From: Patescibacteria group bacterium
GTDB lineage: Bacteria; Patescibacteriota; UBA1384; JACPKC01
Direction of reading: 5' to 3'
DNA length: 64,000 nucleotides
Assembly (NCBI GenBank): GCA_050944875.1
Contig: JBMNRW010000002.1
Location: 1,009 to 65,008 of the forward strand
Notes under the pieces: generated by a model
What the model was told of the DNA's origin: nothing
The model's input: only the letters and a program-made list of their open reading frames with translations
The model's database searches: none
Program-made: the position numbers and the translations under genes
Shown here: piece after piece, positions 43 through 52,540 of the stretch
Position numbering within the stretch: the first letter of the stretch is position 1
How the letters are laid out: the number at the start of each line of letters is the position of its first letter

Positions 43-2532
<2,490 letters not shown>

Positions 2533-3860: not shown

Positions 3861-3982
3861 GAGGTGATCGCTCTAATTTTGGAAAGAGTCGTCCGACCGG
3901 GCGATACCGCGGAGTATGCGCTTGGAGCACCGCGCCGTCACCTTGTCGAACGGGAGTGGGGTGTGTACCCTGAGGAGTAACT

Positions 3983-4297
3983 ATGGAGCGCCACGATATC
4001 GAACAGCTCGCCCGCTTGGCTCGTCTCGAACTTACCGAGGACGAGCTCACGCGCCTTCCTGGCGAAATCACGGGGATCCTCCGTTATGTCGGGCAGCTCG
4101 AAGAGGTGGACGTCGATGGCGTCGAGCCAACTGGGCAGGTGCTCGGCCTCTCGAACGTCCTCCGTACTGACGAGCCGCGCGGGGACTCGCTCGAAGTGCT
4201 CCGAGAACGCCGGAGTGTGCTCCTCGCCATGGCACCTGAGACGACCGATGACGGGTACCTCGTCGTCCCGAAGGTGATCGATCGGGGGGACGAGTGA
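3983..4297 (+). CDS. gatC: Asp/Glu-tRNA amidotransferase subunit C
   Basis: 104 aa, GatC-like sequence; ATGA-coupled to gatA. Confidence 0.9.
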   Translation: MERHDIEQLARLARLELTEDELTRLPGEITGILRYVGQLEEVDVDGVEPTGQVLGLSNVLRTDEPRGDSLEVLRERRSVLLAMAPETTDDGYLVVPKVIDRGDE

Positions 4298-29064: not shown

Positions 29065-29221
29065 GTCGGCTTTCGGCCTCGAACCTGTAGCTTGAAAACT
29101 CGCACTCGTATACGACCAGCGTATATAGGTAAGGACCAATCGGGATTGGTTTCTCGGTTGGTTGGAAGATTGAGCCTCGCCGGGGTTATCCGGCGTGTGG
29201 TCACAACATGAAGTGACATCT

Positions 29222-30673
<1,452 letters not shown>

Positions 30674-31386: not shown

Positions 31387-31776
31387 GTGACGATCCAATG
31401 GATCCAGGCGATTCCGTGGTGGTACCGGCATGTGCCGGCTCTGTTGGCGCATCACCAGCGCCTCATCTTTGAAACGGTTGTCGACTACTTCTCGTTCGCC
31501 ATCCTCCTCCGAACGCTCTTCGCCCCGTGGAAGCGAGACCAGCGCGCAACCGACCGGCTGACGATCCCAGAGTGGGTGCGGGTCTTCGGTGAGAACATGA
31601 TGACGCGGCTCGTCGGGGCGATCGTCCGACTGGGCGCCATGGGTGCTGGGCTCCTTTGCCTTGCGTTCCTCGCAGTGCTCGACGTCCTCATTTGGATTAC
31701 CTGGCTCGTCGCACCGCTCCTCGCACTTGGACTCATTGCGCTAGGCATTCTCACTGGGCTCGGGGGGATGCAGTGA
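31387..31776 (+). CDS. integral membrane protein (about 129 aa, 3 predicted TM helices)
   Basis: GTG start 4 nt after GGAGG; alternative ATG 31336; stop overlaps next start (GTGA). Confidence 0.45.
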   Translation: MTIQWIQAIPWWYRHVPALLAHHQRLIFETVVDYFSFAILLRTLFAPWKRDQRATDRLTIPEWVRVFGENMMTRLVGAIVRLGAMGAGLLCLAFLAVLDVLIWITWLVAPLLALGLIALGILTGLGGMQ

Positions 31777-34433
31777 TCCGCCTCGAGGGATCGCGCGGGG
31801 TCGCGGTGGCGCGTGCCGAGCTGCAGCACAATAGCGTGCTCTGGCGCACTGCCCGGCTCGCTGGCGTTGTTGTCGTCGGTCTTGCGCTCCTCTACTGGGC
31901 GGGCGGCGCGCTGTCGCTCGTGGACGTGTCGCCGTTCTTCCTCGGGCTCGCCGAGCTCGTCGTCGGCGTCGCGATTCTGGTCGGCATCGCCGAGCTGTAC
32001 TACCACGTCGCCGTGGAGCCGAGCGCTCCCGTGGTACCGCTCAGTGACGCCCTGAAGCGCGATGACTGGCAGGACCGAGTCAACATTGCGGACTACGCGT
32101 CCCGCGAACTCGCGACCGTCCTCCTCGCCTCACGGTCTGGTGCGACGTTCGATATCTCCAAATTCCTCCAGGCGCTCCTCATGCAGCGGACGACGCGCGT
32201 TCTCCTCGACCGGGCCGGGCTTGCCGGCGACGTCAAGGGCGGCGCTGCCGGCCAGGCTCCTGGAGTCGCTGAGCCGGTCAACTCCGTTGAAGCGGTGCTC
32301 ACTGTCGCAACCACGCTCGCGGCACAGGGCTTCAAGCGCCACGTCCACGTGAGCCACGTCTTACGCGCGCTTGCTCGGCACCACCAGGGCTTTGCGAACC
32401 TGCTCTTCGCCAACGACGTGAAGCCGGAAGATCTCGATGCCGCGATCGCGTGGTACGAGCGAGTGACGACGCTTGCCCGCGGCAGTTTCTTCTGGGAGCG
32501 GGGGAAGATCGGCGTCTGGGGAATTGGGCGCGACTGGGCGGCCGGGTACACGCCGACGCTCTCGCAGTACGCGGTCGATCTGTCGTCGTACCTGCGGGAA
32601 GCGCAGCTCCAGGCGCAGATCACTGGCCGACAGGCGGAGATCGACCAGCTCGTCACGTCCCTGGCCAGTGAGCGCCGCTCGAATGCGCTCCTGGTTGGAC
32701 AGCCGGGCGTTGGGAAGACGACGATCGTGAACGGACTCGCCGCACGGATTGCTTCCGGTGAGGTGCCGCGCTCGCTCGCCGATAAGCACGTGTTCCAGCT
32801 GGATGTCGGCCGTGTGCTCGCCGGGCTCATGAACCGCGGGGAGCTGGAAGTTCGGCTCCTCAAAATTCTCGGCGACGCGGCGCACGCCGGGAACATCATC
32901 CTCTTCATTAAGGACATCCACGTCCTCCTGGCGGCCGAGGAGGGGAAGACCGGCGCGGTCAACGCGGCCGAGACCCTGCTGCCGTTCCTTGAGTCTGGCC
33001 GGATCCAGCTCATTGGGACGACGACGCCGAGCGACTACCACGGCACGATCGAAGTGCAGTCGGCGGTTGCCCAGCTCTTCTCGCGCGTCGACGTCGCACC
33101 AGCCACGCCCGAAGACACGCTCGTCCAGCTCCAAGACGTCGCGCTGCACCTCGAGGTACGCCAGCGGGTGTTCATTGCGATCCCGACGATCCGAGTGGCG
33201 GTCGAACGGGCGGAGCGCTACCTGGCGAACGTGCCACTCCCGGAGAGTGCGATCCGTGTCCTCGAGGCAGCGGCTGTCGCAGCCGGCAACCGTGGCGGTG
33301 GCGTGCTGACCGTAAAGGATGTTGACGACGTCGTCGCGCAGCTCGCGAAGGTGCCGGTCGGCGACGTTGAGACGACGGAGAAGGACAAGCTCCTCAACCT
33401 CGAAGCAGTCCTCCACGAGCGCGTTGTTGGCCAGGACGAGGCAGTCCAAGCTGTCGCGGCGGCACTCCGCCGGGCTCGGTCAGGCCTCGCGAGCCAGAGT
33501 CGGCCGATCGGTAGTTTCCTCTTCCTCGGGCCGACCGGTGTGGGGAAGACGGAGACGGCGCGGGCGCTCGCGGCCGTGTACTTCGGCGCGGAGGACGCGA
33601 TGGTCCGGATCGACATGAGCGAGTTTCAGAGCCCCGCGAGCCTTGCCCGACTCATCGGGGCGCCGACTGAGGCGAACAAAGCCGGCGCAGGCCAGCTGAC
33701 GAGCGCGCTCCGGGACAAGCCGTTCAGCCTGGTTCTCCTAGATGAGATCGAGAAGGCGCACCCGAACGTCTTAAATGTTTTTCTCCAGATCCTCGACGAC
33801 GGTCGTGTGTCGGACGGTCGCGGCGAGCCGGTCGATTTCCGGAACGCGATTATCATCGCCACCTCGAACGCCGGCTCGGCGATGATCCGCGAGGCAGCGA
33901 AGACTGGCGAGCTCGGCGAGGGCTTCAAGGAGCAGCTCATCAATCACCTGCAGAGCGAGGGGCAGTTCAAGTCGGAGTTCTTAAACCGGTTCGATGCGGT
34001 CGTTGCGTTTAAGCCGCTCAGCCTGACTGAGTTGAGTACGATCGTCGACTACCAGCTCAAGGCGTTGAACGCTCGACTGAGCTCGCAAGAGGTGCAGGTC
34101 GCGTTGACGGACGCAGCGCGGACCCGCCTGGCTGAGCTTGGGTACAAGCCGGAGTTCGGTGCCCGAGCGCTCCGCCGCGTCTTACAGGAAAAGGTTGAGA
34201 ACCTCGTCGCTGATCGGCTCCTCAAGGGCGAGGTACAGCGTGGGCAGATCGTAACGATTGATCTCCCGGACCTGGGTGGAGTGGAGGCAGAACGGCAGGA
34301 CGAGGTCAAGCAGTCGACGACTAGTGGGACGCATACTCCGACGAGCGGGTTGCAGCAAGTAGAGACTCATAAATCAGTATCGGCCAACGGGCTGGCGGAC
34401 GAGTCGATTATCCACGATTCTTGGCGCTCTTAG
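31773..34433 (+). CDS. membrane-anchored two-NBD Clp/Hsp100-family AAA+ ATPase (ClpA/ClpC-like, no long M-domain)
   Basis: N-terminal 2 TM helices, Clp_N-like repeats, D1 Walker A GQPGVGKTT, D2 Walker A GPTGVGKTE, sensor/arginine-finger regions, C-terminal D2-small domain. Confidence 0.8.
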   Translation: MIRLEGSRGVAVARAELQHNSVLWRTARLAGVVVVGLALLYWAGGALSLVDVSPFFLGLAELVVGVAILVGIAELYYHVAVEPSAPVVPLSDALKRDDWQDRVNIADYASRELATVLLASRSGATFDISKFLQALLMQRTTRVLLDRAGLAGDVKGGAAGQAPGVAEPVNSVEAVLTVATTLAAQGFKRHVHVSHVLRALARHHQGFANLLFANDVKPEDLDAAIAWYERVTTLARGSFFWERGKIGVWGIGRDWAAGYTPTLSQYAVDLSSYLREAQLQAQITGRQAEIDQLVTSLASERRSNALLVGQPGVGKTTIVNGLAARIASGEVPRSLADKHVFQLDVGRVLAGLMNRGELEVRLLKILGDAAHAGNIILFIKDIHVLLAAEEGKTGAVNAAETLLPFLESGRIQLIGTTTPSDYHGTIEVQSAVAQLFSRVDVAPATPEDTLVQLQDVALHLEVRQRVFIAIPTIRVAVERAERYLANVPLPESAIRVLEAAAVAAGNRGGGVLTVKDVDDVVAQLAKVPVGDVETTEKDKLLNLEAVLHERVVGQDEAVQAVAAALRRARSGLASQSRPIGSFLFLGPTGVGKTETARALAAVYFGAEDAMVRIDMSEFQSPASLARLIGAPTEANKAGAGQLTSALRDKPFSLVLLDEIEKAHPNVLNVFLQILDDGRVSDGRGEPVDFRNAIIIATSNAGSAMIREAAKTGELGEGFKEQLINHLQSEGQFKSEFLNRFDAVVAFKPLSLTELSTIVDYQLKALNARLSSQEVQVALTDAARTRLAELGYKPEFGARALRRVLQEKVENLVADRLLKGEVQRGQIVTIDLPDLGGVEAERQDEVKQSTTSGTHTPTSGLQQVETHKSVSANGLADESIIHDSWRS

Positions 34434-34727: not shown

Positions 34728-34804
34728 GGGCATGTAGCTCAGTTGGTTAGAGCGCGTCACTGATAATGACGAGGTCCCAGGTTCAAATCCTGGCATGCCC
34801 ACCA
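34728..34804 (+). tRNA. tRNA-Ile (anticodon GAT), CCA encoded
   Basis: Cloverleaf: acceptor GGGCATG/CATGCCC, anticodon loop CUGAUAA, T-loop GGTTCAAATCC. Confidence 0.95.
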
Positions 34805-34814
34805 GAGAAGACGA

Positions 34815-34839
34815 CCACGCCTAGGCGTGGCGTTCTTTT
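34815..34839 (+). terminator. weak hairpin (CCACGCC-TA-GGCGTGG) + CGTTCTTTT after tRNA-Ile
   Basis: Inverted repeat then U-rich tract; followed by TGGTATACT extended -10. Confidence 0.3.
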
Positions 34840-34858
34840 GGTATACTTGTGTTGTAAT

Positions 34859-35338
34859 ATGATGAATACGCCGCACATCCTGACGGGGGCAGCGATTGGT
34901 GTTGCAACCGGAAATCCAATCCTGGGGTTCTTGGGTGGTTTGGCGAGTCACTTTGTACTCGACGCGATCCCTCACACGGATCCAGGTACCTGGCATTTCG
35001 AGGAGCCGCTTCCGTTTAAGATTGACGAGCGTGACCTGACAGCGGCATTTATTGATCTCGCCATCGCGGCCGTCTTACTCGTTTGGTTGGCCGGTAATGT
35101 CCCGATCGCTGCGGCAGCGCCACTAGCTGCAATGTTTGGTGCGATATTGCCCGACATTTTTATTGTATCGCTCTTGTTTTGGCCTCGGCTCGTTACCGTG
35201 CCGGGATTTAGTCATTACGACAAGTTTAACCGTATGCTTCAGGCTCAATCGACAGCGAAACCACACCAGTGGGCACTCGGGATTCTTACGCAGGTCGCGG
35301 TGACCGTTGGGGCTGTATGGTTCTTACTCGTCTCCTAG
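34859..35338 (+). CDS. membrane-bound metal-dependent hydrolase (DUF457/YdjM-like), probably leaderless
   Basis: Motifs HILTGAAIG, SHFVLDAIPH, AILPDIFI; TGGTATACT 12 nt upstream of ATG. Confidence 0.55.
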   Translation: MMNTPHILTGAAIGVATGNPILGFLGGLASHFVLDAIPHTDPGTWHFEEPLPFKIDERDLTAAFIDLAIAAVLLVWLAGNVPIAAAAPLAAMFGAILPDIFIVSLLFWPRLVTVPGFSHYDKFNRMLQAQSTAKPHQWALGILTQVAVTVGAVWFLLVS

Positions 35339-35562: not shown

Positions 35563-35638
35563 GGGCCAGTAGCTCAGTTGGTAGAGCACCGCCTTTGCAA
35601 GGCGGGGGTCTGGGGTTCGAATCCCCACTGGTCCACCA
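35563..35638 (+). tRNA. tRNA-Ala (anticodon TGC) with G3:U70, CCA encoded
   Basis: Acceptor GGGCCAG/CTGGTCC with G3-U70 wobble, anticodon loop UUUGCAA. Confidence 0.95.
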
Positions 35639-35687: not shown

Positions 35688-35948
35688 CTACTTCCACCTA
35701 TCGAGTTTTGGTATTCCCCGAGTAAGGAACCAGGCAAGCAAACCGTTCATACCATCTTTTTTCATCTCTTGTATGCAATACGTTTGGAATTTTTGTGCTG
35801 TATCAACTTCTGGCGGATTGAGAAATTTTCCTTTCTCGTAGCACATAGAACAATAGATTTTGCTAATTGAACCATCGGCATTTGTGCCCCCTCCTTTCTT
35901 GTCTTTTATCAATGGAAATCCACAACTTTGACAAATCTGGTTATTCAT
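35688..35948 (-). CDS. putative zinc-ribbon protein (Zn_ribbon_2-like: CQSCGFPL...CSMCY)
   Basis: 86 aa, about 35% GC; two CxxC pairs. Confidence 0.6.
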   Translation of the reverse strand: MNNQICQSCGFPLIKDKKGGGTNADGSISKIYCSMCYEKGKFLNPPEVDTAQKFQTYCIQEMKKDGMNGLLAWFLTRGIPKLDRWK

Positions 35949-36136
35949 TTGAACCCTTTCTATTTGTAGTTCGTACTTGCGGCTCCGCGCCCAGAGGCAT
36001 ATTCTGATACCTGTTTCTGGTGTCTGTTTGGTGAATGGATCTTTGCTGGTGCTTTTAAAGTAACTGGTGAAATTGATCTTAATAAATGAAATCGCAATAA
36101 CAGCGTATGGTAAAGGGTAATATTTCGTGGCGTACC

Positions 36137-36520
36137 TTACCCTTCATCGCGCCCGAGCGCTGATCCAGCGGCCCAGAGGCCAAGGGCTAGGTATAGGATG
36201 CCGTCGTATGGGTCTTCGAGTGCGAGTTCCATGAGCAGAGGGTCGCCAGCCGGGAGGAAGAAGCTCGCAGTGCCGAGGGCGAGGTAGACGAGCGCAATGG
36301 CGCCCACGAGGAGGCGCTGGAGTGGCCGTGGCGCTACTACGGCCGCGATGAGACTCAGTGCTCCTAATGCAAGCTGCACGAGGTTCTCGCGACCGCTGAA
36401 GTACCATGTCGCGCCGAACAGGCTTTCCTCAGGTGTTGGCCCGATGATACCGATAACGCCGAGGATGCTGAGGAGGATAAGCATCCAGCCGCCCCAGATC
36501 AGGAATGACTTCGTTGTCAT
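36137..36520 (-). CDS. small integral membrane protein (127 aa, 4 TM)
   Basis: ORF-track frame trimmed to Met-62. Confidence 0.5.
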   Translation of the reverse strand: MTTKSFLIWGGWMLILLSILGVIGIIGPTPEESLFGATWYFSGRENLVQLALGALSLIAAVVAPRPLQRLLVGAIALVYLALGTASFFLPAGDPLLMELALEDPYDGILYLALGLWAAGSALGRDEG

Positions 36521-37229
36521 AAATTCCTTTCGAGTACATCGGAGTAGTGTTGTTACTATACACCAGGTTTTGAATTGGCGGTCCGGGTATGCTTGTTGGC
36601 AAATCAATGACGAACGTGAATGGTTTATGTCAATTCTCGGCTGTGTTGGATGTGTGTTGACTTGAGGTGGTAGCAAATAGGCGCGAGCTCCCGCTGAAAG
36701 CATGCAGTTGCGAGCTAAGTTGGTCTTTATAGAAGCCGATCGGAATGATTATATTCCGGTTGATGTTGGGATCAAATCTTGCTCGGCCGCTGCATCACCT
36801 GTGGCGCGGGCGTTGGAGTAATTCTTGCGGTCAATACAACCAGCCTGGTTGTCCCTGCTCGTGATCGGTGCAGTATGTTTGGTCGGACGTATCACGTTCG
36901 TAGATGTTCTCGTTGTAGTGATGAACGCGGCGCCGTGGATATACGAGCGCGCGGTCTTTACGGGCAGAGGAAAATTGTCCGGTTGCAACCCAGTACCAGC
37001 GAGCGTCGTCAGCATCTTTGACTACAATGAATGAATTGGATCCGCGTTACAGAGCCTTATGGTACTTAGAAGGAATGTTAATAGATATTAGTGTTTAATT
37101 TTCTATTTTTTTTCTCCTTGTAAACTAGACAAAAATGAAATTATCCGTTATAGCTAGTCCAGCTTTCGGGACTTATTCGGTAATCCCGAATTGCAAATTT
37201 ACACACATCTAGAAACGAGGTGAGGGGAT

Positions 37230-37946
37230 TTGGCACATTTGATTGAGCTAATGTTTTGGTCGTTGTACGCAACGTGCTACGACGCATTGAGTCGACTCAA
37301 GGCGTATAAGGAAATGCAGGTTCGAACTCTGCAGCTTCTCTCACCGACGAGCGGCGAACAAATTCTCGATGCGGGGTCTGGAACAGGTAACTTGATCCGA
37401 GCAATCGAGGATATGGCTGAGGTTGTGGTGGTGGGGGTAGATTGTAATCCTGGTATGCTTGCGGTTGCAAAGCGCAAGCAGTTGAGGGCTACGCTCTGGC
37501 GGTGTGATCTCAACGAAGTTTTGCCGTTTCGTGACAGCACCTTCGACAAGGCTGTGTCGACGAACAATCTTTACGTCCTTGCCGATCCCGTGAGTGTGCT
37601 TAGAGAGTTTCGGCGTGTTTTACGGAAAGGGGGCAAACTCATCATTGTAAACCCCGTGCCTGGCTTTTCGCCCGGAAAGATTCTGCGCGATCATCTCGAT
37701 CGAACCAAGGATCTTTGGGGCTGGCTCGAGGTTGTTATCCATATACCACACATCATGGCGATCCTCTTGCTGAATTTGTTTATTGTGAACAAGGGGAGGG
37801 CGGGGAGTTACCATTTTGCCGATGTGGCGAAATGGCAGCAGTGGGTAAGAGACAGCGGGCTAAGTGTTGATCGTTTGGAGTTGGTGTATGCCGATCAAGC
37901 ACTGCTCGTATCTCTCGTGAAGGAGGAGGTGGTTCCAGGTGCATGA
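37230..37946 (+). CDS. class I SAM-dependent methyltransferase (Methyltransf_11/25-like)
   Basis: Motif I ILDAGSGTGNL, motif post-I VVGVDCNP, motif II; TTG start per ORF track (ATG 37251 alternative). Confidence 0.7.
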   Translation: MAHLIELMFWSLYATCYDALSRLKAYKEMQVRTLQLLSPTSGEQILDAGSGTGNLIRAIEDMAEVVVVGVDCNPGMLAVAKRKQLRATLWRCDLNEVLPFRDSTFDKAVSTNNLYVLADPVSVLREFRRVLRKGGKLIIVNPVPGFSPGKILRDHLDRTKDLWGWLEVVIHIPHIMAILLLNLFIVNKGRAGSYHFADVAKWQQWVRDSGLSVDRLELVYADQALLVSLVKEEVVPGA

Positions 37947-38613
37947 TTTGGCGATGTTGCAGCTTCATTCGGGTGGGCAGTTGCTGACGATTGACTTCGG
38001 CGCTCCGACGCTTCCGGATGAGTATTTCCAAATGTTTCGGCTGCGGCATGATCGGTACTTAGAGAAGGGTTATATCGCGGCGCGAGACGACGGCTTGGAT
38101 TATGACATCTACGACCAGCGAAAGCAGTGTCACTACGTAATTGCTTCCATCGACAGGCGCGTAGTTGGCACAGTGCGTTTGATTGTCGGCAATACGCTGC
38201 CGACCGAGGATTACTTCAGCTTTCATGAGCCGGATCAAATGCGCGAGTTGCCGCGTAGCTGTCGCGGTGAAGTGTCGCGGCTCGTCGTAGAGCGTGAAGC
38301 TAAACTAGCTCAGCATCTAATAACGATCGGGTTAGTATACACGCTGTACTTGATAGCCGAAGAGGGGCAGATCCTCGGAGGTTACCTGTACGTGAAGAAC
38401 TATCTCCGTCGAATTCTCGCCAGCCTTGGAATCCCGCTTCATGATGTTGGGAGCTATACGCTCAAGCACGCGCCGGATTATATGGCTGGATATTTCGCAG
38501 AGACACAGGAGCCGACTGCACCGCTGTACTTCCTTACAAAGGAAGTTGGTCAGGCAGCGATACTCTTGATAAACCAGGAGGCCAATGGCCGATCCTGGAG
38601 AAAAGTCTCTTAA
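37939..38613 (+). CDS. LuxI-family / N-acyl amino acid synthase-like GNAT acyltransferase
   Basis: FRLRHDRYLEKGYIAARDDGLDYDIYDQ...HYVIASIDRRVVGTVRLIVGN...RGEVSRLVV aligns with autoinducer-synthase conserved blocks (R..VF, E.DEYD, RLLP, ExSRFAV); RBS AGGAGGAGG. Confidence 0.55.
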   Translation: MHDLAMLQLHSGGQLLTIDFGAPTLPDEYFQMFRLRHDRYLEKGYIAARDDGLDYDIYDQRKQCHYVIASIDRRVVGTVRLIVGNTLPTEDYFSFHEPDQMRELPRSCRGEVSRLVVEREAKLAQHLITIGLVYTLYLIAEEGQILGGYLYVKNYLRRILASLGIPLHDVGSYTLKHAPDYMAGYFAETQEPTAPLYFLTKEVGQAAILLINQEANGRSWRKVS

Positions 38614-38620
38614 CTCCTTA

Positions 38621-38646
38621 GGGGCCCGTTGGGCCCCTTTTTCTTT
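38621..38646 (+). terminator. rho-independent terminator after the acyltransferase-like gene
   Basis: GGGGCCC-GTT-GGGCCCC + TTTTTCTTT. Confidence 0.55.
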
Positions 38647-38659
38647 CTGTTACACTGAA

Positions 38660-40882
38660 ATGGTCATGTGGACTTACAAAGAATTTCTCATTTTAGTTGC
38701 TATCGTTGTTACGATAGCAATGGCTGTTTTTGTTTGGTTGCGACAGCCGAAAAATCCGGTAAATATATTCTTTCTACTCGCATGCCTAAATGTGGTGGGA
38801 TGGGAAGTCGGGATTATTATCTTTCGAATCTCAGCCGATGGTTCAGCGGAGCTCTATTGGGGTCAGCTAATTCATTTTTTCGCGATTTTGATCCCTCTGT
38901 GTTTCTATGTCATGTTTTCATTCTTTCCAGCAGGGAAGTTTCGGGGAAATGCGATTGTTGTTTCGCTTGTTTCTTTACTAACCATTGTTTGGCTTTGGCT
39001 TGTCTTTTCAGAGAAATATATTTCCAGTTTAACATTGGTCGATGGCGTACGGGGATTGCGATATGAATGGTTATTCCTTCCGTATGTCGTACACATTTCG
39101 ATGTTATTCCTTCTTTGTTTTTTTGTGCTTGGCAGGGGTTTGCAAAGTAGCCGAGGAATTATTAGATCTCAATATCTCTACATGTTCCTCGGACTATTTG
39201 GTGCAAGTGGTGTTGGCTCATATTTGAATCTTTTTCTTGTAGGCATTGGTGATTTTCGGTTCAATTGGCTCGGGCCGTTATCGCCAATAATCATGATGGC
39301 ATTTATAGCGTATGCGATAATAGCACATCGTCTGTTTGATATTCGTGTCATTATTCGACGAACAGTGGTGTTCGCTGGATTGTCTGTATTCTCACTTGGA
39401 ATTTACGCCGCAATTATGTTTGCCGCCACGGCGCTTATTGGTGGCTCGGGTCGGTCAGTATTCTTAGCAAGTCAGTTTGTGCCAAACATGGTTGCTGTGT
39501 TCGCTATAGCGCTTGGCTTTGATCCACTTCGGAAGTGGCTAAGCAAGACGACCGATACTTGGTTATTTAAGGCAGATTACGACAAGGAAGCGCTCCTGGC
39601 AGCGCTCTCTAGGAATCTCGCCAACGCAGTAGATCTAATTGATGCCGTTGAGAGCATGATCGAAATTATGACTACTCAGATGCGTCTTGCGAGTGGTGCT
39701 GCCATTCTTGTGCAGCCAGCCGAGGAAGCAGGCATGTATGAGCTGAAGCAGCTGATTTCTGCCGGATATACTGAGCAACAAAAACGAGCTCTCGAGCTAA
39801 AGCCTAAAGACGCGCTTGTTGAGTTCTTTCAATGCGATAAAGACGGTAAGCATAAGTGCACTAGCCTAGTTGTAGTTGACGAGCTTGAGCGTCAGTATAG
39901 TGACTCCAGTTTTTTAGGGGCGCAAAAAGTACTGGCTGCGGCGCTCATCAAGCGATTGCGGGCGATTGATGTGGCGGTGGCAATACCACTTTACATCGCG
40001 CGCCGAGAGCCGGTCCCGACAGTGCCGGGGACGCCGCCTCAGTACAGGAAAGTTGAGACATTCATTGGCATTGTTGTCCTTGGCGAGAAGAAATCAGGTG
40101 ATGCTTTTACGGCTGAAGATTTGCGTCTATTAGAGATTGTTGCGAGTCAAACAGCTGGGGCAGTTGAAAAATCCCGACTCTTCGAAGAAGACCAGCTTAA
40201 GAGTGAGTTTGTTGCCGTGGCGTCTCATGAATTACTAACTCCGACGGCGGCTATGGAAGGCTATCTATCGATGATTTTGGATGAGGGCTTGGGCAAGGTG
40301 GATAAGCAGGCTCGGACGTACCTCGAGATGGTGTACTCGGAGTCCAAGCGACTCGCCGCCCTCGTGAAAGACCTTCTAAATGTTAGTCGAATAGAGCGGG
40401 GTAAGATTCTCGTTAATCCTGAGCCGATTGTTCTCGATGAAGTGGTCGAGCAGGTGCTCGCGAGCCTCAAGTTCCGGGCCGAAGAGCGGAAGATCTCGAT
40501 CCTATTCAAGAAGGCCGAACCACTCCCTAAGGTGATGGCAGACAAAGATAAGCTTGTTGAAGTGTTTGTGAATCTAATTGGGAACTCGATCAAGTACACG
40601 CCAGAGGGTGGAAAAGTAGAGATTGTAACCGAGGTGCAGGACGGATTCGTCGCTGTCTGTGTGAAGGATAATGGAATTGGGATGAAACCAGAGGACGCAC
40701 AGCACCTCTTTAGTAAGTTTTTCCGCGCCTCGAACTCTGACCAGACCGGTCAGGGCGGGACAGGGCTCGGTCTCTACATCACGAAGAACGTCATTGAACT
40801 CATGGGCGGGACGATCACAGTCAAGACGGCGCTTGGAAAAGGCTCGGCGTTTACCTTTACTTTGCCTGTGGTTAACGGGTGA
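38660..40882 (+). CDS. sensor histidine kinase with N-terminal multi-pass (7-8 TM) sensor domain, GAF-like linker, HisKA and HATPase_c
   Basis: H-box VAVASHELLTPTAAMEGY, N/G1/G2 boxes (NLIGNSIKYT, DNGIGM, GGTGLGLYI); about 40% GC; start uncertain (38585/38660/38741). Confidence 0.85.
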   Translation: MVMWTYKEFLILVAIVVTIAMAVFVWLRQPKNPVNIFFLLACLNVVGWEVGIIIFRISADGSAELYWGQLIHFFAILIPLCFYVMFSFFPAGKFRGNAIVVSLVSLLTIVWLWLVFSEKYISSLTLVDGVRGLRYEWLFLPYVVHISMLFLLCFFVLGRGLQSSRGIIRSQYLYMFLGLFGASGVGSYLNLFLVGIGDFRFNWLGPLSPIIMMAFIAYAIIAHRLFDIRVIIRRTVVFAGLSVFSLGIYAAIMFAATALIGGSGRSVFLASQFVPNMVAVFAIALGFDPLRKWLSKTTDTWLFKADYDKEALLAALSRNLANAVDLIDAVESMIEIMTTQMRLASGAAILVQPAEEAGMYELKQLISAGYTEQQKRALELKPKDALVEFFQCDKDGKHKCTSLVVVDELERQYSDSSFLGAQKVLAAALIKRLRAIDVAVAIPLYIARREPVPTVPGTPPQYRKVETFIGIVVLGEKKSGDAFTAEDLRLLEIVASQTAGAVEKSRLFEEDQLKSEFVAVASHELLTPTAAMEGYLSMILDEGLGKVDKQARTYLEMVYSESKRLAALVKDLLNVSRIERGKILVNPEPIVLDEVVEQVLASLKFRAEERKISILFKKAEPLPKVMADKDKLVEVFVNLIGNSIKYTPEGGKVEIVTEVQDGFVAVCVKDNGIGMKPEDAQHLFSKFFRASNSDQTGQGGTGLGLYITKNVIELMGGTITVKTALGKGSAFTFTLPVVNG

Positions 40883-40937
40883 CTTGTTTTATGGGAAACT
40901 ACTCGATACCGTTAGGGGGACAATAAAAAGGAGGCAT

Positions 40938-41306
40938 ATGGTTAAACGGGTGCTACTTATCGAGGATGATATTACTCTTCGGGACTTGTACTTCACCCGG
41001 TTTAGTATGGAGGACTTTGACCTCGAGGTTGCGACCGATGGCGAGGCCGGTCTCTCTAAGGTGAAGGAGTTTAAGCCAGATGCTGTCCTCCTCGACCTCC
41101 GCATTCCGAAACTTACTGGGTTTGAAGTGCTTCGTCGCATTAAGGAGGATCCGGAGATTAAGGACACTCCGGTCATCGTCTTTACGGCTCTCTCTGGTGA
41201 TGACGACCGGAAGAAGTGTATGGAGACCGGTGCCGCTGCATTCCTCTCGAAGGCCGAGACAATGCCGAAGGATGTCATCGAGAAGATGAAGGAAGTTATC
41301 GGGTAG
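40938..41306 (+). CDS. single-domain CheY-like response regulator (REC only)
   Basis: D-D-K pattern (DD at 9-10, D53 in LLDLRIP, T81, K103); RBS AAAGGAGG. Confidence 0.85.
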   Translation: MVKRVLLIEDDITLRDLYFTRFSMEDFDLEVATDGEAGLSKVKEFKPDAVLLDLRIPKLTGFEVLRRIKEDPEIKDTPVIVFTALSGDDDRKKCMETGAAAFLSKAETMPKDVIEKMKEVIG

Positions 41307-41323
41307 CAATGCACTTCTCGTAA

Positions 41324-41356
41324 GTACGCCTCCTCACTGGGAGGCGTACTTTGTTT
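41324..41356 (+). terminator. rho-independent terminator after response regulator
   Basis: GTACGCCTCC-TCACTG-GGAGGCGTAC + TTTGTTT. Confidence 0.55.
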
Positions 41357-41418: not shown

Positions 41419-41429
41419 AGTTGCGAACT

Positions 41430-44400
41430 ATGCGTAGGAGGGCAGGGGTGGATAATCGACCAGTTGATATTCAATCGCTTGATGAACAATTAGCCGCAAT
41501 TCAACGATCGACAAGGACAACGCTGCCGGCGCTCTTGCCTGCGCACGAGTGGCTTCGCGCGAACTCACGATTGTACTATCGGTGGCATGCCCAGTCGTAT
41601 GCTGAGCCAATTCACAAGCTAACTGCCTGGGGCGTGGTCGCGCTGTCCGTTGTAAAGATTGCAGCAATTGTTGTGCCATTGGTTAGCTCGCCAGGCAGTT
41701 CGCTTGCGGCTTCGAGCTGGACTCAGGCCAGTCAGGTGGAATTTTTAACAGGGACGACGGCTGGTGCGGCCACAGTGACAAATCTAAATGGCGGCGCAGT
41801 GACGCTCAACTCGTCTCAGTTTTCGCATAAGCGATCGGTTACCATTGACAATACGAATGGCGGCACGCTGACAGACGCACCCGTAAGGGTCGAGCTTACA
41901 AGTGAGAATTTTGATTTTACTGCAGCACAGGCCGATGGGGATGATATTCGGTTTTATGCGGCTGATGATACAACAGCGCTTGAGTATTGGACGGAGAGCT
42001 GGAACGCGAACGACCAGGTAGCGACAGTGTGGGTGAAGCTCCCCTCACTAAATGCAGGAGCGTCGACGATCGTACATCTTTACTCGGGCAATCCAGTCAT
42101 TGAGGGTGGGAGCGCAGCGCCATTCTCGGTCACTCCATCAACGGCCAATATGAGTCTTTGGCTGGATTCGAGTACCTTAAGCCAGGTAGACGGAGCGGCG
42201 GTAGCTAATTGGTCAGATCGACGGGGTCTTGCCGCCGAGGCTACACAGTTAATTGAACAGCATCAGCCAACCGTGCAGACGAATGAGCTCAACGGACATG
42301 CGGTTGTTCGTTTTGATGGTTTAGATGACTTTGTTTCTTTTGGTAATATCGATGATATTCGGACGGTTTTTTGGGTGTACAAGTACAACCCGGAAGCCGG
42401 GGCAGCGCATCGTCCGATGCTTGGTCATTCGGCTGTGCATCATTTCCATGGAGACAGTGCACAAAACATTTGGGGTGAGGATAGTTCAAGCTATGTAACC
42501 AGTGGAACAACGCGACTACATGGGGCGTCGATTGACGGTTTATCTACCCAATTGCCGACGTCGTTTAAATACATGTCTCTTGTGACCACGGATAATACTT
42601 CGGCTGATTCTTTTGCCAAGGATCGAGATACGGGCAATATGTTTTCGGGAGATTTAGCTGAGCTTATTATCTACAACGCTGCGCTCTCTGATTCAGATGT
42701 TAAATCCATCGAGTCATACTTGAACGGTAAGTATTTCTCCGTGGTGACGGTCGGGGAGGCGACGACACTGGATTTAGGTGGAACGTACACCTCTTCGTCA
42801 CATGATACGGCGCAGTTCTCAGATTTTTCGACGCTCAGTTGGAATGCAGTGGTACCCACTGGCACTGAGATTAAGTTTCAGCTGCGGAGTGCAGAATCAG
42901 AAGCTGATCTTACTAACGCGACATGGTATGGCCCAACTGGTACGAACGATTACTACGTAACGCCTGATACCGTTGTCAACGAGATCTCAAACGGCAAGCG
43001 CTGGGTTCAATATCAGGTGACTTTGAGTGCGGTTGAGAACGGTACATTTCCTGTGCTTGAAAGCGTTACGCTTGCATATGATACAGCAAGTCTCATAGTC
43101 ACCGAGCCTACAGGCCTTGCGATGGGCGTATATACAGTAAACAATCTGACGATTAATGGCGGGCAGACGCTTACACTTGCGGGTGGTACAACGCTCAATG
43201 TGTTCGGTGACTTAGTCCTTGATGATGCTGGTGGCGCTTCGCAGATTGTTTGTCAGGGAAGTAATAAGGCAGAGCGGATCGACGGCGAGTGGGTAGGTCG
43301 GGGATGTGTGGTTAATGTAGCTGGCGACACCGTGATTGACGCTAATTCAGCCATCACAGCAGATGGTCAGGGTTATACTGGCACACATCGTGGTGCTGGT
43401 AATGGTCCAGGGGGTGCGCCTGCTGGCGGAATCTACGCTGGTCCAGGTGGAAGTTATGGCGGTGTTGGGAGCTATGGCAGAGAAGATGGTACCGACGGCT
43501 TGCCTGGTCAATCGTACGGGGATGCCTTAGAGCCAATCGATCTTGGCTCAGCCGGCGGAAGTAGTACAAGTATGTATAGCTCCGGCGTCGGTGGTTCGGG
43601 CGGGGGTGCAATTCGACTAGATGTTCAGGGTACTATAGAGCTGAACGGTGAAATCTCTGCCAATGGTGAAGATGGTACAGGAAGTGGTACTTACGGCTCG
43701 GGTGGTGGTTCGGGTGGTTCAATTTGGATTACGGCCGGAACGTTAACCGGTGGTGGCACCATTGCGGCGAATGGTGGTGATGGTCGCGATGGTGACTGGG
43801 ATGGTGGTGGTGGTGGTGGGCGGATCGCAATTCACTATACGACGAACAATGGTTTCGATTTTACAAATGTCACAGCAACGTTAGGCGGTGGCGGCTTAAA
43901 TGCTGGCGAGAACGGAACAACCTATGCGCTTGCGAACGGACACTTACTAGTGTGGCAGCGTCTTGCAGTGGAGGGCGGGCGCAGTCTCTCGTACAGCAGT
44001 GTTCTCATTGAGAACGGCTCGTTGTTTGTGGTAGGCGGAGATAGTTCGCTGACGATTAGCGAGGACTTGACGGTAACGGGGGGCTCAACTCTGCAGCTTG
44101 AGGGTGCAAATCGCACAGGGAAGGTTGACGACCAGTGGCGAGGCACAGGCGTTGCAATTAATGCTGGAGATCTCGTTATTGATGCCGGTTCATCTATTAC
44201 GGCAGATGGTCAGGGTTATACTGGCACACATCGTGGTGCTGGTAATGGTCCAGGGGGTGCGCCTGCTGGCGGAATCTACGCTGGTCCAGGTGGAAGTTAT
44301 GGCGGTGTTGGGAGCTATGGCAGAGAAGATGGTACCGACGGCTTGCCTGGTCAATCGTACGGGGATGCCTTAGAGCCAATCGATCTTGGCTCAGCCGGCG

Positions 44401-47400
44401 GAAGTAGTACAAGTATGTATAGCTCCGGCGTCGGTGGTTCGGGCGGGGGTGCAATTCGACTAGATGTTCAGGGTACTATAGAGCTGAACGGTGAAATCTC
44501 TGCCAATGGTGAAGATGGTACAGGAAGTGGTACTTACGGCTCGGGTGGTGGTTCGGGTGGTTCAATTTGGATTACGGCCGGAACGTTAACCGGTGGTGGC
44601 ACCATTGCGGCGAATGGTGGTGATGGTCGCGATGGTGACTGGGATGGTGGTGGTGGTGGTGGGCGGATCGCAATTCACTATACGACGAACAATGGTTTCG
44701 ATTTTACAAATGTCACAGCAACGTTAGGCGGTGGCGGCTTAAATGCTGGCGAGAACGGAACAACCTATGCGCTTGCGAACGGACACTTACTAGTGTGGCA
44801 GCGTCTTGCAGTGGAGGGCGGGCGCAGTCTCTCGTACAGCAGTGTTCTCATTGAGAACGGCTCGTTGTTTGTGGTAGGCGGAGATAGTTTGCTGACGATT
44901 AGCGAGGACTTGACGGTAACGGGGGGCTCAACTCTGCAGCTTGAGGGTGCAAATCGCACAGGGAAGGTTGACGACCAGTGGCGAGGCACAGGCGGTGTAA
45001 TTAATGCTGGAGATCTCGTTATTGATGCCGGTTCATCTATTACGGCAGATGGTCAGGGTTATACGGGAGTATGTCATGGCGCCCCGAACGGTCCTGGCGG
45101 TGCAACTGTCGGTGGCTTCCATGCTGGTCCGGGTGGAAGCTACGGTAGCTTGGGAAAATATGGCAACGCGAATGGCGCTGATGGTACGCCAGGTCAAACG
45201 TACGGTAATGCCTATGCGCCAATCGACCTCGGCTCAGCTGGTGGAGGTCTATCGAGCACCGGCGGTTGTGGCATTGGTGGCTCGGGCGGTGGTGCGATTC
45301 GGCTTTATGTTCAGGGTACTTTAGAACTGAATGGAGAGATTACTGCCAACGGCTCTAATGGTGCGGGCGGCGGCGGTGGTTCTGGCGGCTCGATTTGGAT
45401 TACAACCGGAACATTAACTGGAAGTGGATCTGTGGCCGCAAATGGCGGTAACGGTGACCCGGCCAATAGTGCCAACGGTGGTGGTGGTGGTGGACGGATT
45501 GCAATAGGCTATGAGGAGCGTGTATCTGATTCCACAACCCGGTCAGCCGTTTGTGGTGCAGGCGGCTGGACGACAGGGTCGCAAGGCACGATCGTTTTTG
45601 GCGCACTGCCTCAGGTAAATTTAACTACTGAAGATGGGGCTATTATGCCTGCGCGACCGACCTTGAGTTTTTCTGCGTCGCATCCAGAGGGCAGGCAACT
45701 ATACATGAGCATACAGTATGTCGCGCGAGTTGGAGCTGATTGTTCGGAAGATGATTTTAGTGCTGCTGAAACAATCGATTCTGCGGCTATGAGTGAGGGC
45801 TGGAGTTCGGACGGCCTGTATGAGACGACTAGTGGTCCGGCGGCGGCTTCTTATACATTTACCGACGACCTTGGAAGTGGTTACTACTGCTGGCGCGCGA
45901 CGAGCCGCGTATCGATCGACGGATATACTGAGTGGGCTCGTTGGTCTGCTCCGCTTAGCTACGTTGTCGATGCGGCTCAGCCGGCAGCAGTGGTGCTCTT
46001 TACGGACTTTGATATGTACTACACTGATTCCAGTGCAATCCCAACATCCCTTACGGGAACGTCTGTTGATGATGATCAGGGCATGGGTTTGTATGCCAAT
46101 AGCTCAACATTCGCTGTATCGCGGGCACACGATGGAAAGTATTGGGATGGGACAGATTGGGCGAGTAGGCCGGTATATTTATCAACTACTCATCCTGCAA
46201 CAGAAAGTACCCACCAAGCTATTACGTGGAATTCGGCGGTGCAGTTGCCCAACTGGGAGGAGGGCGTATATACAATTCGTGTTCGTGCGATTGATAAGGC
46301 TGGCAATATGCTCACGATCCCCGCGGCCGGGTTTACGTACGACGAGACGCCTCCAGACGATATTGAAGAGGTTAGGGACGGTGACGATGAGATCGACGAC
46401 GACTTCACCGCCACGACGAGCGAGCTCGCTGCGAACTGGGTTGAGACCAATGACGCGACCGCGGGGCTCGAGCGCTACGAGTACGCAGTCGGCACCACTG
46501 ATGGCGGCTCCGACGTGCTCGGCTGGACGAGTAACGCGACGAATGTCACCATGACCGTGGAGGGTCTATCGCTCGCCGAGGGGGAGCAGTACTACGTCGC
46601 AACGCGGGCGATCGATCGCGCGGGAAACATTACGTCGATCTCGTCCTCGGACGGCATTGTCCCAGACGTCACGCCGCCAACGGCAGTGCCGGTCGTTGAC
46701 GAGCAGAAGACGGGGACGGACAACGGGCTAGTCAACTCAACGACGACGCTTTCCTTGACCTGGGAAGCTGCGACAGATGCGATCTCGGGAATTCAGAAAT
46801 ACCAGTACGCGCTTGGGACGACGCCCGGTGCAACCGATGTCGTGACGTGGACTGATAGTACGGCGCAGATTGCCAGCGTCAGTCGTACGGCTGGCTCCAT
46901 CGGTGTCGCAAACGCAGCGACAACGTATGAGCAGAGCGTGACGGGTTTGAGCCTCTCGAACGGCACAACGTACTTCGCGTCGGTCCGCGCGGTCGACAAT
47001 GCGGGGAACGCGTCAGCGCCGAAATCAACGGATGGAGTGACTGTCGATACGACGGCTCCAGATGCTCCGGTTATTACCTCGCCGGCTGCTGGCGCGACCG
47101 TCACCGACAGTACGCCAGTCATTACCGGAACGGCCGAGGCGAATAGCATAGTTGAGGTCAGGGTGAATGGCCGGACATATACGGCGGCAGCTGATGTGAA
47201 TGGCGGCTGGGCGGTTGAGGCAACAGACCCGCTGACTGCTGGCGTTCAGAACGATCTCGTCGTCCGAGCGATCGATGGCGCGGGGAACGCTTCAGTGAGG
47301 GCTGAGCGAAAGTTTGTCTACCAGGTGATTGCTCAAGGGATGATTATCGACTACCCCGAGGATGAGTCAGTCGTACTTGATCCAGTGACGGGAATGACCA

Positions 47401-49359: not shown

Positions 49360-52375
<3,016 letters not shown>

Positions 52376-52423
52376 AGCGTTCGCTCGGTGCAATTGTCGT
52401 AGTCTCAGTGTAGTGTCCAGTGT

Positions 52424-52540
<117 letters not shown>

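Follow-up and report, generated by a model that had tools for sequence, protein, structure and literature searches.

A putative lipid-signalling cassette around a LuxI/FeeM-group acyltransferase in a Patescibacteria bacterium

N-acyl amino acid synthases (NAS) of the FeeM type came to light because the N-acyl tyrosines that they make act as antibacterials and surfactants, and a catalytic glutamate is essential in these enzymes (FeeM E95, Nas354 E103) (PMC4897644). In Gram-negative bacteria, acyltransferases of family TIGR03694 have been linked to exosortases (Craig et al. 2011, as cited in PMC4897644). In Ralstonia, the SAM methyltransferase PhcB forms a fatty-acid methyl ester signal, which is sensed by a histidine kinase, PhcS, of the PhcS(RQ) system (PMC8578825, PMC11960443). 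Further points of comparison are the LuxI-type AHL synthases, the LuxM/LuxN and AinS/AinR systems of Vibrio and the aminolipid pathways. A Patescibacteria cassette that shares features with these systems and differs from each of them lies at 37230-41306 of the window, the whole 64-kb stretch of DNA that was analysed. No description of it was found in the searchable literature.

The cassette comprises four intact ORFs, all on the + strand, exactly where the sequence-only reading had placed them. They encode, in this order, a SAM methyltransferase, a GNAT of the LuxI/FeeM group (ORF2), a HisKA_7TM-GAF histidine kinase and a stand-alone REC protein; Pfam and NCBIfam profile searches upheld the domain assignments of all four. 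The low GC of the island was also borne out. The GC3 of the cassette genes is 0.49-0.63 versus about 0.80 in native flanking genes, which suggests that the cassette was probably acquired horizontally. The island is located inside a split rRNA operon, between the 16S rRNA (29221-30672) upstream and the 23S/5S rRNA (49379-52540) downstream, a context absent from the earlier reading. An assembly artefact is ruled out for the cassette region because the corresponding 8.6 kb of a separate sequencing run (SRR31066179, L001) are 99.99% identical. The lone indel concerns a T-tract at 37105-37113, with T8 in the window and T9 in L001. This tract is part of an AT-rich intergenic leader (37035-37229, + strand), read from the sequence as a putative promoter region. 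The leader carries the Shine-Dalgarno sequence GAGGTGAGGGG immediately 5' of the TTG start of the first gene; a consensus sigma-70 site was not found in it.

The first gene (37230-37946, + strand) encodes a class I SAM-dependent methyltransferase of 238 aa (Pfam Methyltransf_11, 2.4e-19; Methyltransf_25, 7.4e-18). Its NCBIfam matches are generic and all under cut-off, with the DVU_1556 family (69.6 versus 155) followed by UbiE and BioC. The long version with the TTG start is favoured, since methyltransferases of the relatives' cassettes align from residues 4-6 onward. The final 8 nt overlap the acyltransferase gene.

ORF2 (37939-38613, + strand; GTG start) encodes a 224-aa GNAT N-acyltransferase, a putative N-acyl amino compound synthase. 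FeeM is its best-scoring Pfam family (PF21926, 62.6 bits, 4.9e-17, gathering score 27). The gathering score of Autoind_synth is barely passed (25.0 bits, threshold 24), and Acetyltransf_5 scores 26.8 bits. The motifs RLRHDRY, DGLDYDIYD, VGTVRLIVGN and EVSRLVVE, on which the earlier assignment was based, are all present in the translation. The residues R36, Y40, D56, D59, R80, E111 and R114 are invariant in the clade and align to R24, F28, D45, D48, R68, E97 and R100 of EsaI. E111 occupies the position of the essential catalytic glutamate of NAS enzymes. The R...D-x2-D...R...E-x-S-R signature of LuxI-type synthases occurs with identical spacing in the clade. This R/D/D/R/E signature is common to the whole LuxI, NAS and TIGR03694 group and does not tell their products apart. 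The AlphaFold (AF2) model is confident (pLDDT 95.5), and its best structural matches in Foldseek are LasI, BjaI, TofI, MesI, RpaI, EsaI and FeeM, the last with the same GNAT fold at a TM of ~0.7 relative to the target. Profile, conserved residues and predicted structure agree on the LuxI/N-acyl-amino-acid-synthase group that had been proposed. An identical 224-aa protein of a Patescibacteria MAG is annotated by NCBI as FeeM domain-containing protein; the JGI name is 'N-acyl-L-homoserine lactone synthetase'.

The acyltransferase clade is small and divergent. It comprises 227 matches in 1.84 billion (1.84e9) representative proteins, the closest at 43% identity. Pfam FeeM is matched by 73 of the 73 aligned members and Autoind_synth by 57. 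The clade profile retrieved the solved AHL synthases EsaI (9e-8), RpaI, BjaI, LasI and TofI; FeeM was not retrieved at E <= 1. ORF2 belongs to a clade distinct from FeeM, does not exceed 43% identity to any other representative and comes from a host in the Patescibacteria. The clade has both methyltransferase and 7TM kinase partners, whereas neither has been described for FeeM-type genes. Among the database matches are three independent fusions in both orders, methyltransferase-FeeM (P0055) and FeeM-methyltransferase (P0071, P0086). A HisC/CobD-like PLP enzyme forms a fusion with the acyltransferase in one further member of the clade.

The kinase (38585-40882, + strand) has a Pfam HisKA_7TM match of 47.8 bits (gathering score 28.6), a weak GAF match, HisKA and HATPase_c. 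Its N-terminus has about nine transmembrane helices with short loops, the HisKA_7TM core plus two more. Next come a GAF-like domain, whose homology to the corresponding GAF region of the L044 kinase is supported at E 8e-13, and then HisKA and HATPase_c. The H-box SHELLTPT, the N-box and the G-boxes were all found. The sensor aligns with the sensors of other cassette-linked kinases, and both a Trp in TM2 and an LGP motif are conserved. Translation may start at ATG 38585, which has an AGGAGG Shine-Dalgarno, or at ATG 38660, which corresponds to the N-terminal length of homologues. As in LuxM/LuxN and AinS/AinR, a synthase gene is followed by a multi-TM kinase with about nine helices and without a periplasmic domain. 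Unlike LuxN, the cassette kinase has a non-homologous sensor (7.5 bits, E 0.89, which is noise) and is not a hybrid kinase. ORF2 is also a member of the LuxI/FeeM GNAT group and not of the LuxM/AinS family.

The regulator is a stand-alone CheY-like REC protein. Its ORF spans 40794-41306; ATG 40938, as called in L001, is likely the true start, giving 122 aa (40938-41306, + strand). Response_reg (1e-22) was the single Pfam match, and the search revealed no output domain, neither sigma-54 AAA+ nor HTH. The acidic pair (IEDD), the phospho-acceptor Asp (LLDL), the Thr (FTA) and the Lys (LSK) are present.

A GC-rich, intrinsic-terminator-like hairpin with a T-run (38620-38648, + strand) is located 6 nt past the acyltransferase stop codon. 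The hairpin itself (38620-38638) has an 8-bp stem with 7 GC pairs and a folding energy of -16.6 kcal/mol (z = -3.0); none of 200 shuffles folded as well. The hairpin noted earlier as a terminator between synthase and kinase is therefore real, but the two transcription units deduced from it are doubtful. There is no promoter space ahead of the kinase gene, the AGGAGG and the ATG both lie 5' of the hairpin, and in relatives the kinase gene overlaps or abuts the acyltransferase gene. Hence, the hairpin is probably an internal attenuator and the region probably a single operon. The cassette ends with a stronger terminator-like hairpin (41322-41351, + strand; 13-bp stem, -22.1 kcal/mol, z = -5.1), located between the REC gene and a separate giant-protein gene.

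The relatives comprise 26 distinct loci, 21 of them evaluable for the gene after the acyltransferase. In 16 of these 21, the acyltransferase gene is followed by that of a kinase whose 7TM sensor is homologous. In the loci with the conserved kinase, the acyltransferase is 28-43% identical to that of the window and contig GC is 0.24-0.46. A methyltransferase adjoins the acyltransferase in 15 loci and is fused to it in a sixteenth. The order methyltransferase-acyltransferase-kinase recurs in L009, L023, L031-L034, L036 and L038. Missing synteny in homologues, which the sequence-only reading had named as evidence against its proposal, was not observed: the three genes occur together in most relatives, and fusions exist. 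One lineage (L041-L043) repeats all four functions, with a homologous stand-alone REC 3' of the kinase. The cassettes of L038 and L044 contain additional 7TM-only or 7TM-GAF paralogues. FadD-like long-chain acyl-CoA ligases are encoded directly upstream in L037 and L038. A PlsC-type O-acyltransferase (PF01553) is encoded 0-3 genes upstream in L002, L033, L038 and L041-L043, counted as four relatives. A giant surface protein was not found beside the cassette in any relative's locus examined; this association is not conserved, and the functional link suggested earlier has no support.

The cassette is plausibly a self-contained lipid-signalling circuit. In the leading, still tentative reading, a methylated N-acyl amino compound would be produced and sensed by its own intramembrane kinase, as in LuxM/LuxN or PhcB/PhcS. 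Family, fold and conserved catalytic residues suggest that ORF2 would N-acylate an amino acid or a related amine, with acyl-CoA or acyl-ACP as the fatty-acyl donor. The FadD-like ligases are consistent with a fatty-acyl substrate. The translationally coupled methyltransferase would methylate the acylated product or a precursor, in the simplest case to a neutral methyl ester; the fusion proteins place both enzymes in one pathway. The hydrophobic product would enter the membrane and be detected by the loop-less 7TM/9TM sensor, as suggested by the near-obligate synteny of the kinase. The kinase would phosphorylate the REC protein, which may act via protein-protein contact or a phosphorelay and not by DNA binding. 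Support comes from the domain identities, the small coherent clade, the kinase synteny, the fusions in two orders, the short-loop sensor and the complete set in L041-L043. PhcB/PhcS offers a precedent, in which a SAM methyltransferase makes a methyl-ester signal and a histidine kinase in the membrane receives it, as would be the case for the cassette. In contrast to PhcB, the cassette methyltransferase is coupled to an N-acyltransferase. Several observations count against signalling. The conserved signature does not discriminate, and the PlsC-type genes upstream in four relatives point to membrane lipids. Outside the window, a single lineage places a REC gene beside the kinase. Five loci (L003, L026, L027, L029, L030) have the acyltransferase without a kinase, and the REC-only regulator has no readable output. 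The kinase beside the enzymes may simply regulate them instead of sensing a ligand. The diffusible-signal nature of the product is putative and unproven, and membrane aminolipid formation is a serious rival.

This rival, the main one and less likely than signalling, would make the cassette a system for membrane aminolipid synthesis or remodelling, serving homeostasis and not communication. CPR bacteria rely on scavenged fatty acids, so that lipid remodelling would be a plausible core need. Like the ornithine lipid (OlsB/OlsA) and glycine lipid (GlsB/GlsA) pathways with OlsG, the cassette combines a GNAT N-acyltransferase of the same broad group with a methyltransferase. An OlsB/GlsB-like ORF2 would form a 'lyso-aminolipid' of the N-acyl amino acid type, the second chain would be added by a PlsC-like enzyme whose gene lies elsewhere, the methyltransferase would alter the head group like OlsG, and the kinase would read membrane state or lipid content and control the operon. 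The PlsC-type genes in four relatives follow OlsB/OlsA logic, and the FadD-like ligases, the wholly intramembrane sensor and weak OlsB matches in 7 of 36 fringe members of the family search (best 1.4e-9) fit as well. However, neither a PlsC-like nor an AMP-binding gene is present in the 64-kb window, and in the NCBIfam search the OlsB model had no match to ORF2 at E <= 1. In the relatives, the PlsC-like proteins have no matches beyond generic AGPAT/Aas models, all under cut-offs. Where the upstream sequence is long enough, they are adjacent in only about 4 of 9 loci, versus the near-universal kinase. In profile comparison, OlsB is more distant from the clade than AHL synthases and TIGR03694 are. 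Loci of the ols and gls type are not known to include a dedicated kinase.

A true AHL synthase is unlikely. ORF2 would then take SAM as acyl acceptor, a LuxN-like membrane kinase would sense the AHL, and the methyltransferase would be accessory. The JGI name, the narrow Autoind_synth pass, the solved AHL synthases as top profile and structural matches and the complete LuxI signature point in this direction. Against it, the FeeM profile scores much higher, the NCBIfam AHL-synthase equivalogs reach 11.6-11.7 bits versus cut-offs of 250-292, NAS enzymes share the signature residues, and the LuxN match is noise. The methyltransferase, coupled or fused, has no counterpart in AHL synthesis; the HisC/CobD-like fusion suggests a purpose-made amine acceptor instead of SAM, and, unlike luxI, the cassette has no adjacent LuxR-type partner. 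An N-acyl amino acid antibiotic or biosurfactant against hosts or competitors, with kinase and regulator answering an unrelated cue, also has a low probability. The discovery route of FeeM-type synthases (PMC4897644) and the mobile, transposase-flanked and kinase-free P0002 copies are in its favour. It leaves unexplained why, in lineages that differ strongly from each other, the enzyme is followed by a kinase with one specific homologous sensor domain, and why L038 and L044 contain 7TM paralogues. The exosortase-associated system put forward earlier is highly improbable, and membership is effectively refuted. TIGR03694 is the nearest curated NCBIfam neighbour, being the top match of ORF2 as well as of 72 of the 73 clade members (best E 5.5e-20), and its synthase is linked to a PrsK kinase with a similar multi-TM and GAF layout. 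Yet every clade member is under the cut-off (ORF2 48.8 versus 111.95 bits), the kinase reaches 12.1 bits versus 300 with PrsK (TIGR02916), and the regulator is no sigma-54 activator of the PrsR kind. The 64-kb window encodes no exosortase or PEP-CTERM protein, the Pfam/NCBIfam matches of the giant protein include no PEP-CTERM-type sorting signal, and the host is a Patescibacteria MAG, while the exosortase link comes from work on Gram-negative bacteria.

The candidate lipid-signalling circuit belongs to a tiny-genome Patescibacteria/CPR bacterium, and the cassette recurs in distant uncultured relatives.

The stretch from 37230 to 41306 (plus strand) holds four intact open reading frames. Their domain content agrees with the sequence-only reading: a methyltransferase, a GNAT acyltransferase, a 7TM kinase and a REC protein were all found. 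ORF1 codes for a class I SAM methyltransferase with a TTG start, preceded by the Shine-Dalgarno sequence GAGGTGAGGGG. The gene of ORF2, a 224-aa GNAT, shares 8 nt with the end of the methyltransferase gene. Its GTG start agrees with the N-termini of homologues and with the NCBI annotation. ORF3 encodes a 765-aa histidine kinase with HisKA_7TM, a weak GAF, HisKA and HATPase_c. ORF4 is a REC-only protein, most likely starting at ATG 40938, which yields 122 aa. The same 8.6 kb is present in an independent sequencing run with 99.99% identity. The window and this second contig (L001) differ solely in the length of a leader poly-T tract (37105-37113; T8 and T9, respectively), for which a sequencing error or phase variation of a promoter spacer could account. 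Within its 5' end, the methyltransferase gene holds a 24-nt near-perfect palindrome (37282-37305, ACGCATTGAGTCGACTCAAGGCGT), perhaps with a role as operator or in structure.

A stable hairpin with a T-run is located at 38620-38648, 6 nt past the acyltransferase stop codon. The hairpin is real, but its former interpretation as the border between two transcription units is doubtful. There is no promoter space ahead of the kinase gene, the ATG at 38585, upstream of the hairpin, has a Shine-Dalgarno sequence (AGGAGG), and the acyltransferase and kinase genes are tightly coupled in relatives, often abutting or overlapping. Together, these features argue against a second transcription unit. The hairpin is read as a putative internal attenuator that may set the enzyme-to-receptor ratio. 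The alternative kinase start, ATG 38660, is a better fit to the N-terminal length of homologues. The cassette ends in a strong terminator past the REC gene, at 41322-41351, and the giant gene downstream has promoter-like sites of its own.

The profile searches placed ORF2 with the FeeM family. It reached 62.6 bits with Pfam FeeM (PF21926, GA 27), a profile matched by all 73 aligned members of the clade formed by ORF2 and its relatives. The match to Pfam Autoind_synth was marginal (25.0 bits, GA 24) and outscored by FeeM; 57 of the 73 members matched this profile. Acetyltransf_5 was also matched by ORF2. R36, Y40, D56, D59, R80, E111 and R114 are invariant in the 73-sequence alignment. The clade profile matches the solved AHL synthases EsaI, RpaI, BjaI, LasI and TofI, and the invariant residues align onto the EsaI set R24, F28, D45, D48, R68, E97, S99 and R100. 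With S113, they occupy the LuxI signature positions, which in EsaI include W34; the aromatic Y45 of ORF2 lies beside the W34 position. E111, invariant in all 73 sequences, aligns with EsaI E97 in an E-x-S-R motif. The catalytic glutamate is E95 in FeeM and E103 in Nas354 (PMC4897644). The AlphaFold model of ORF2 (pLDDT 95.5, pTM 0.92) had its best Foldseek matches in LasI, BjaI, TofI, MesI, RpaI, EsaI and FeeM. The FeeM chains (2G0B) were matched with E-values of 8.6e-7 to 1e-5 and a TMt of 0.70-0.73, a superposable GNAT fold. The proposed affiliation to the group of LuxI and N-acyl-amino-acid synthases was upheld by profile, by the conserved residues and by the predicted structure. On these predictions, ORF2 represents a distinct clade within the LuxI/FeeM/NAS GNAT group with an apparently intact catalytic apparatus.

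The signature is also kept in NAS and in TIGR03694-like fringe members of the family. It is therefore not discriminating and does not tell which amine is acylated. At its weak end, the family search passes over into TIGR03694 and then into weak matches to TraI-type AHL synthases and OlsB; these fringe proteins retain the R/D/D/R/E signature. In sequence space, ORF2 stands very much alone. Among 5.8 billion proteins, a word-indexed search retrieved only ORF2 itself, the 73-sequence alignment as a word-indexed query retrieved almost nothing beyond the query, and no relative turned up when reference genomes were scanned with the single protein. Exhaustive phmmer, run on 1.84 billion cluster representatives, yielded 227 relatives, the best with 43% identity. 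The identical protein is deposited at NCBI from a Patescibacteria group MAG (MGI6103241.1), where it is encoded on a 107-kb contig. Public labels are 'FeeM domain-containing protein', which is generic, and 'N-acyl-L-homoserine lactone synthetase', which is probably wrong.

The methyltransferase matches generic class I enzymes in PDB and NCBIfam, with no substrate indicated. The kinase is supported by HisKA_7TM (PF16927, 47.8 bits, GA 28.6), HisKA (7.4e-15) and HATPase_c (2.7e-30). Its sensor comprises about nine hydrophobic segments in residues 34-310 with short loops only. Seven transmembrane helices align across the sensors of the cassette kinases, sharing a conserved Trp in TM2 and the motifs 'LGP' and 'AI..LF.I(K/R)V'. 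A comparison of enzyme and sensor identities in the style of a mirror tree gave r = 0.61 for 36 pairs; this value is confounded by shared phylogeny and is not counted as evidence.

Contig look-ups and one metagenome scan provided 26 distinct loci with clade members. Neighbouring genes were typed by precomputed Pfam annotations and by phmmer and hmmsearch profiles of the window proteins. A kinase with a 7TM sensor homologous to that of the window follows the acyltransferase, or the acyltransferase and methyltransferase, in 16 of the 21 loci with enough downstream sequence. The methyltransferase adjoins the acyltransferase in 15 loci and is fused to it in a sixteenth (L041). The most common order is that of the window: methyltransferase, acyltransferase, kinase. 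The concern that homologues might lack the syntenic context was thereby dispelled. The kinase linkage is missing from the transposase-flanked copies of P0002 (L003-L006) and from a subgroup in which acyltransferase genes occur in tandem or singly (L026, L027, L029 and L030). L026, L029 and L030 are short contigs with a GC content of 0.44-0.46 that carry two tandem acyltransferase paralogues and neither a methyltransferase nor a kinase.

Three independent enzyme fusions were found, in both orders: methyltransferase-FeeM in P0055 and FeeM-methyltransferase in P0071 and P0086. The fusions indicate that both enzymes act on one pathway. Loci L041-L043, from two NCBI MAGs, encode a PlsC-like protein, a FeeM-methyltransferase fusion, a 7TM kinase, a stand-alone REC protein and a DUF5652 protein. 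They thus hold the four functions of the window in identical order. A REC gene beside the kinase was not seen in the other relatives' loci. L044 combines a methyltransferase, a FeeM protein fused to a HisC/CobD-like PLP-dependent enzyme and a 7TM-GAF kinase, the GAF region of which is homologous to the middle domain of the window kinase. The fused clade member (P0069, L044 1940-3793) has 231.7 bits with TIGR01141, below the cut-off, and 142.7 bits with a CobD-like model. This fusion points to a single polypeptide that also makes the amine acceptor. CAI-1-type chemistry was discarded, as the fused aminotransferase is HisC/CobD-like and not CqsA/AONS-like. L044 also encodes a 225-aa protein consisting of a 7TM domain alone (378-1055), and L038 a second methyltransferase and a 7TM-GAF protein without a kinase core (2284-5176). 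These extra sensor paralogues could be co-receptors or decoys. In L010 (2695-7459), type IV secretion genes (PrgI-like, TraC-like) come directly after the acyltransferase-kinase pair; among them is the gene of a 1080-aa TraG/VirB4-like ATPase that is interrupted by an intein with a LAGLIDADG endonuclease.

The cassette lies in a low-GC stretch (~34.5 to 47 kb) of a window with a GC content of ~0.64. According to Rfam and ARAGORN, this stretch is inside a split rRNA operon. The 16S rRNA gene (29221-30672) is separated by 18.7 kb from the 23S (49379-52363) and 5S (52424-52540) rRNA genes on the same strand. Between 16S and 23S are a Clp-type AAA+ ATPase gene (31656-34433), tRNA-Ile(GAT) (34728-34804), a membrane-protein ORF, tRNA-Ala(TGC) (35563-35638), two minus-strand genes, the cassette and the gene of the 2545-aa giant protein. 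The two tRNA genes are normally neighbours in the rRNA spacer. They are ~760 bp apart here, with a 190-aa membrane-protein ORF without family match (34766-35338, GC3 0.58) between them. The two minus-strand genes (35688-36703) code for an 86-aa Zn_ribbon_2 protein, with 0.39 the lowest GC of the island, and a 188-aa membrane protein without family match. The Clp ATPase has its best reference-genome relatives at 35-44% identity, mostly in Patescibacteria MAGs, in agreement with the MAG that encodes the identical ORF2 protein. In nine other, mostly Patescibacteria, genomes, none of its homologues adjoins rRNA genes. The high-GC flanks carry housekeeping genes for LigA, GatA/GatB, HtrA, S2, RseP, ProRS, GAPDH, trigger factor and PepA. 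That the cassette resides in a reduced genome is plausible from the Patescibacteria placement; the window alone cannot show it.

The cassette genes have a GC3 of 0.49-0.63, compared to ~0.80 in native genes. Most contigs of relatives have a GC content of 0.24-0.46. Together with the transposase-flanked P0002, this makes a horizontal acquisition of the cassette likely. An integrase or att-like direct repeats bounding the island were looked for and not found. P0002, the closest relative with 43% identity, is encoded in an acyltransferase-methyltransferase pair without kinase on contigs with a GC content of 0.63-0.68 (L003-L006). Its neighbours are rve, DDE_Tnp_1 and Y2_Tnp transposase genes, and it occurs on at least 11 contigs from several samples. 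Here the enzyme pair seems to exist in a mobile form. The giant protein gene (41421-49058) encodes DUF2341, Ig-like Big_13/Big_6, three CarboxypepD_reg, Gly-rich repeats and C-terminal hydrophobic segments. Three tandem units of 843 bp (281 aa) are located at ~43320-45850, with an identity of 96-100% for the first two and of 69-86% for the third. The GC3 of the gene climbs from 0.44-0.49 in the 5' half to 0.71 at the 3' end, which gives it the look of a foreign 5' part joined to a native 3' part. The sequence-only reading had associated the cassette with this surface protein. This association was lost in the comparison: the giant gene is not beside the cassette in any relative's locus.

The gene set, the enzyme family and, as judged from sequence, the intact active site are established. 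Also established are the pathway coupling of methyltransferase and acyltransferase and the near-obligate linkage to one sensor-kinase family. The conservation evidence for the cassette is strong; its function we infer. The GNAT may transfer a fatty acyl group to the nitrogen of an amino acid or amine, and either this product or its precursor may be methylated by the methyltransferase. In L037 and L038, the gene directly upstream of the cassette codes for a FadD-like long-chain acyl-CoA ligase. Detection of the hydrophobic product would take place inside the membrane, at the loop-less 7TM sensor, after which the kinase would signal via the CheY-like REC protein. A function as lipid-signal synthase with a membrane kinase receptor is given a little less than an even chance. 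The operon logic is the same as in LuxM/LuxN and AinS/AinR. The window kinase differs from LuxN-type receptors: it has no LuxN sensor homology (NF041945, 7.5 bits, E 0.89), and it has no C-terminal receiver domain and therefore no hybrid architecture. In PhcB/PhcS, a signal made by a methyltransferase is sensed by a histidine kinase (PMC8578825); the likeness to the cassette is one of logic only. A more specific version is improbable: a quorum-sensing-like circuit of CPR's own, in which the clade synthase and the methyltransferase would form the methyl ester of an N-acyl amino acid, or a neutral lipid signal of a similar kind, with the HisKA_7TM kinase as receptor.

The cassette may instead serve membrane aminolipid synthesis, with the kinase as a sensor of the membrane state that regulates lipid remodelling. 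An N-acyltransferase, an O-acyltransferase and a methyltransferase follow the logic of ornithine and glycine lipids (OlsB/OlsA/OlsG, GlsB/GlsA). Four divergent relatives (L002, L033, L038 and L041) have a PlsC-type O-acyltransferase gene close upstream of the cassette, which keeps this alternative open for the wider family. However, the 64-kb window has no PlsC-like or FadD-like gene, the relatives' PlsC-like proteins match generic models only, and the kinase linkage is far more constant than the PlsC linkage. The OlsB model had no match to ORF2 at E ≤ 1; weak OlsB matches occurred in one of the 73 core clade members and in seven of 36 fringe members. Aminolipid synthesis, the main rival of the signalling reading, is considered rather unlikely. 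Lesser alternatives are a true AHL synthase, antibiotic or surfactant synthesis and an exosortase system. ORF2 fails the NCBIfam models of TraI-type AHL synthases, with 11.6-11.7 bits against cut-offs of 250-292. The exosortase-associated system, proposed earlier as an alternative, was rejected on its profile scores. TIGR03694 was matched by 72 of the 73 clade members, all below the cut-off (best E 5.5e-20), with ORF2 at 48.8 bits versus 111.95. PrsK (TIGR02916) had 12.1 bits with the ORF3 sensor versus 300, and the regulator is REC only and not of the PrsR sigma-54 type. Exosortase or PEP-CTERM proteins were absent from the window proteins scanned.

A literature search with incomplete coverage retrieved no account of such a three- or four-gene module, no ligand of HisKA_7TM and no synthase-receptor pair in CPR, which is absence of evidence only. 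If the more specific, quorum-sensing-like version is true, no signalling pair of synthase and receptor would have been described in CPR before this one, and the HisKA_7TM sensor domain would have its first ligand class. The synthase genes for 'NAME'-type AHL analogues are still unknown (PMC11580390), and the cassette would then be a candidate genetic route to them. An operon that makes and senses a lipid-like molecule would also give a first function to the HisKA_7TM sensor domain and to a methyltransferase-coupled LuxI/FeeM clade that is labelled generically or mislabelled as AHL synthases. With only three or four small genes, it is suited to heterologous expression. CPR are thought to scavenge lipids; aminolipid synthesis, if true, would mean a dedicated, kinase-controlled aminolipid pathway in these bacteria. 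CPR/Patescibacteria, with their minimal genomes, are widely taken to be episymbionts, and to our knowledge it is largely unknown how they sense their partners or each other. A compact, horizontally mobile operon for making and sensing a lipid-like molecule, if real, would be a direct experimental handle on cell-cell and cell-host communication in CPR.
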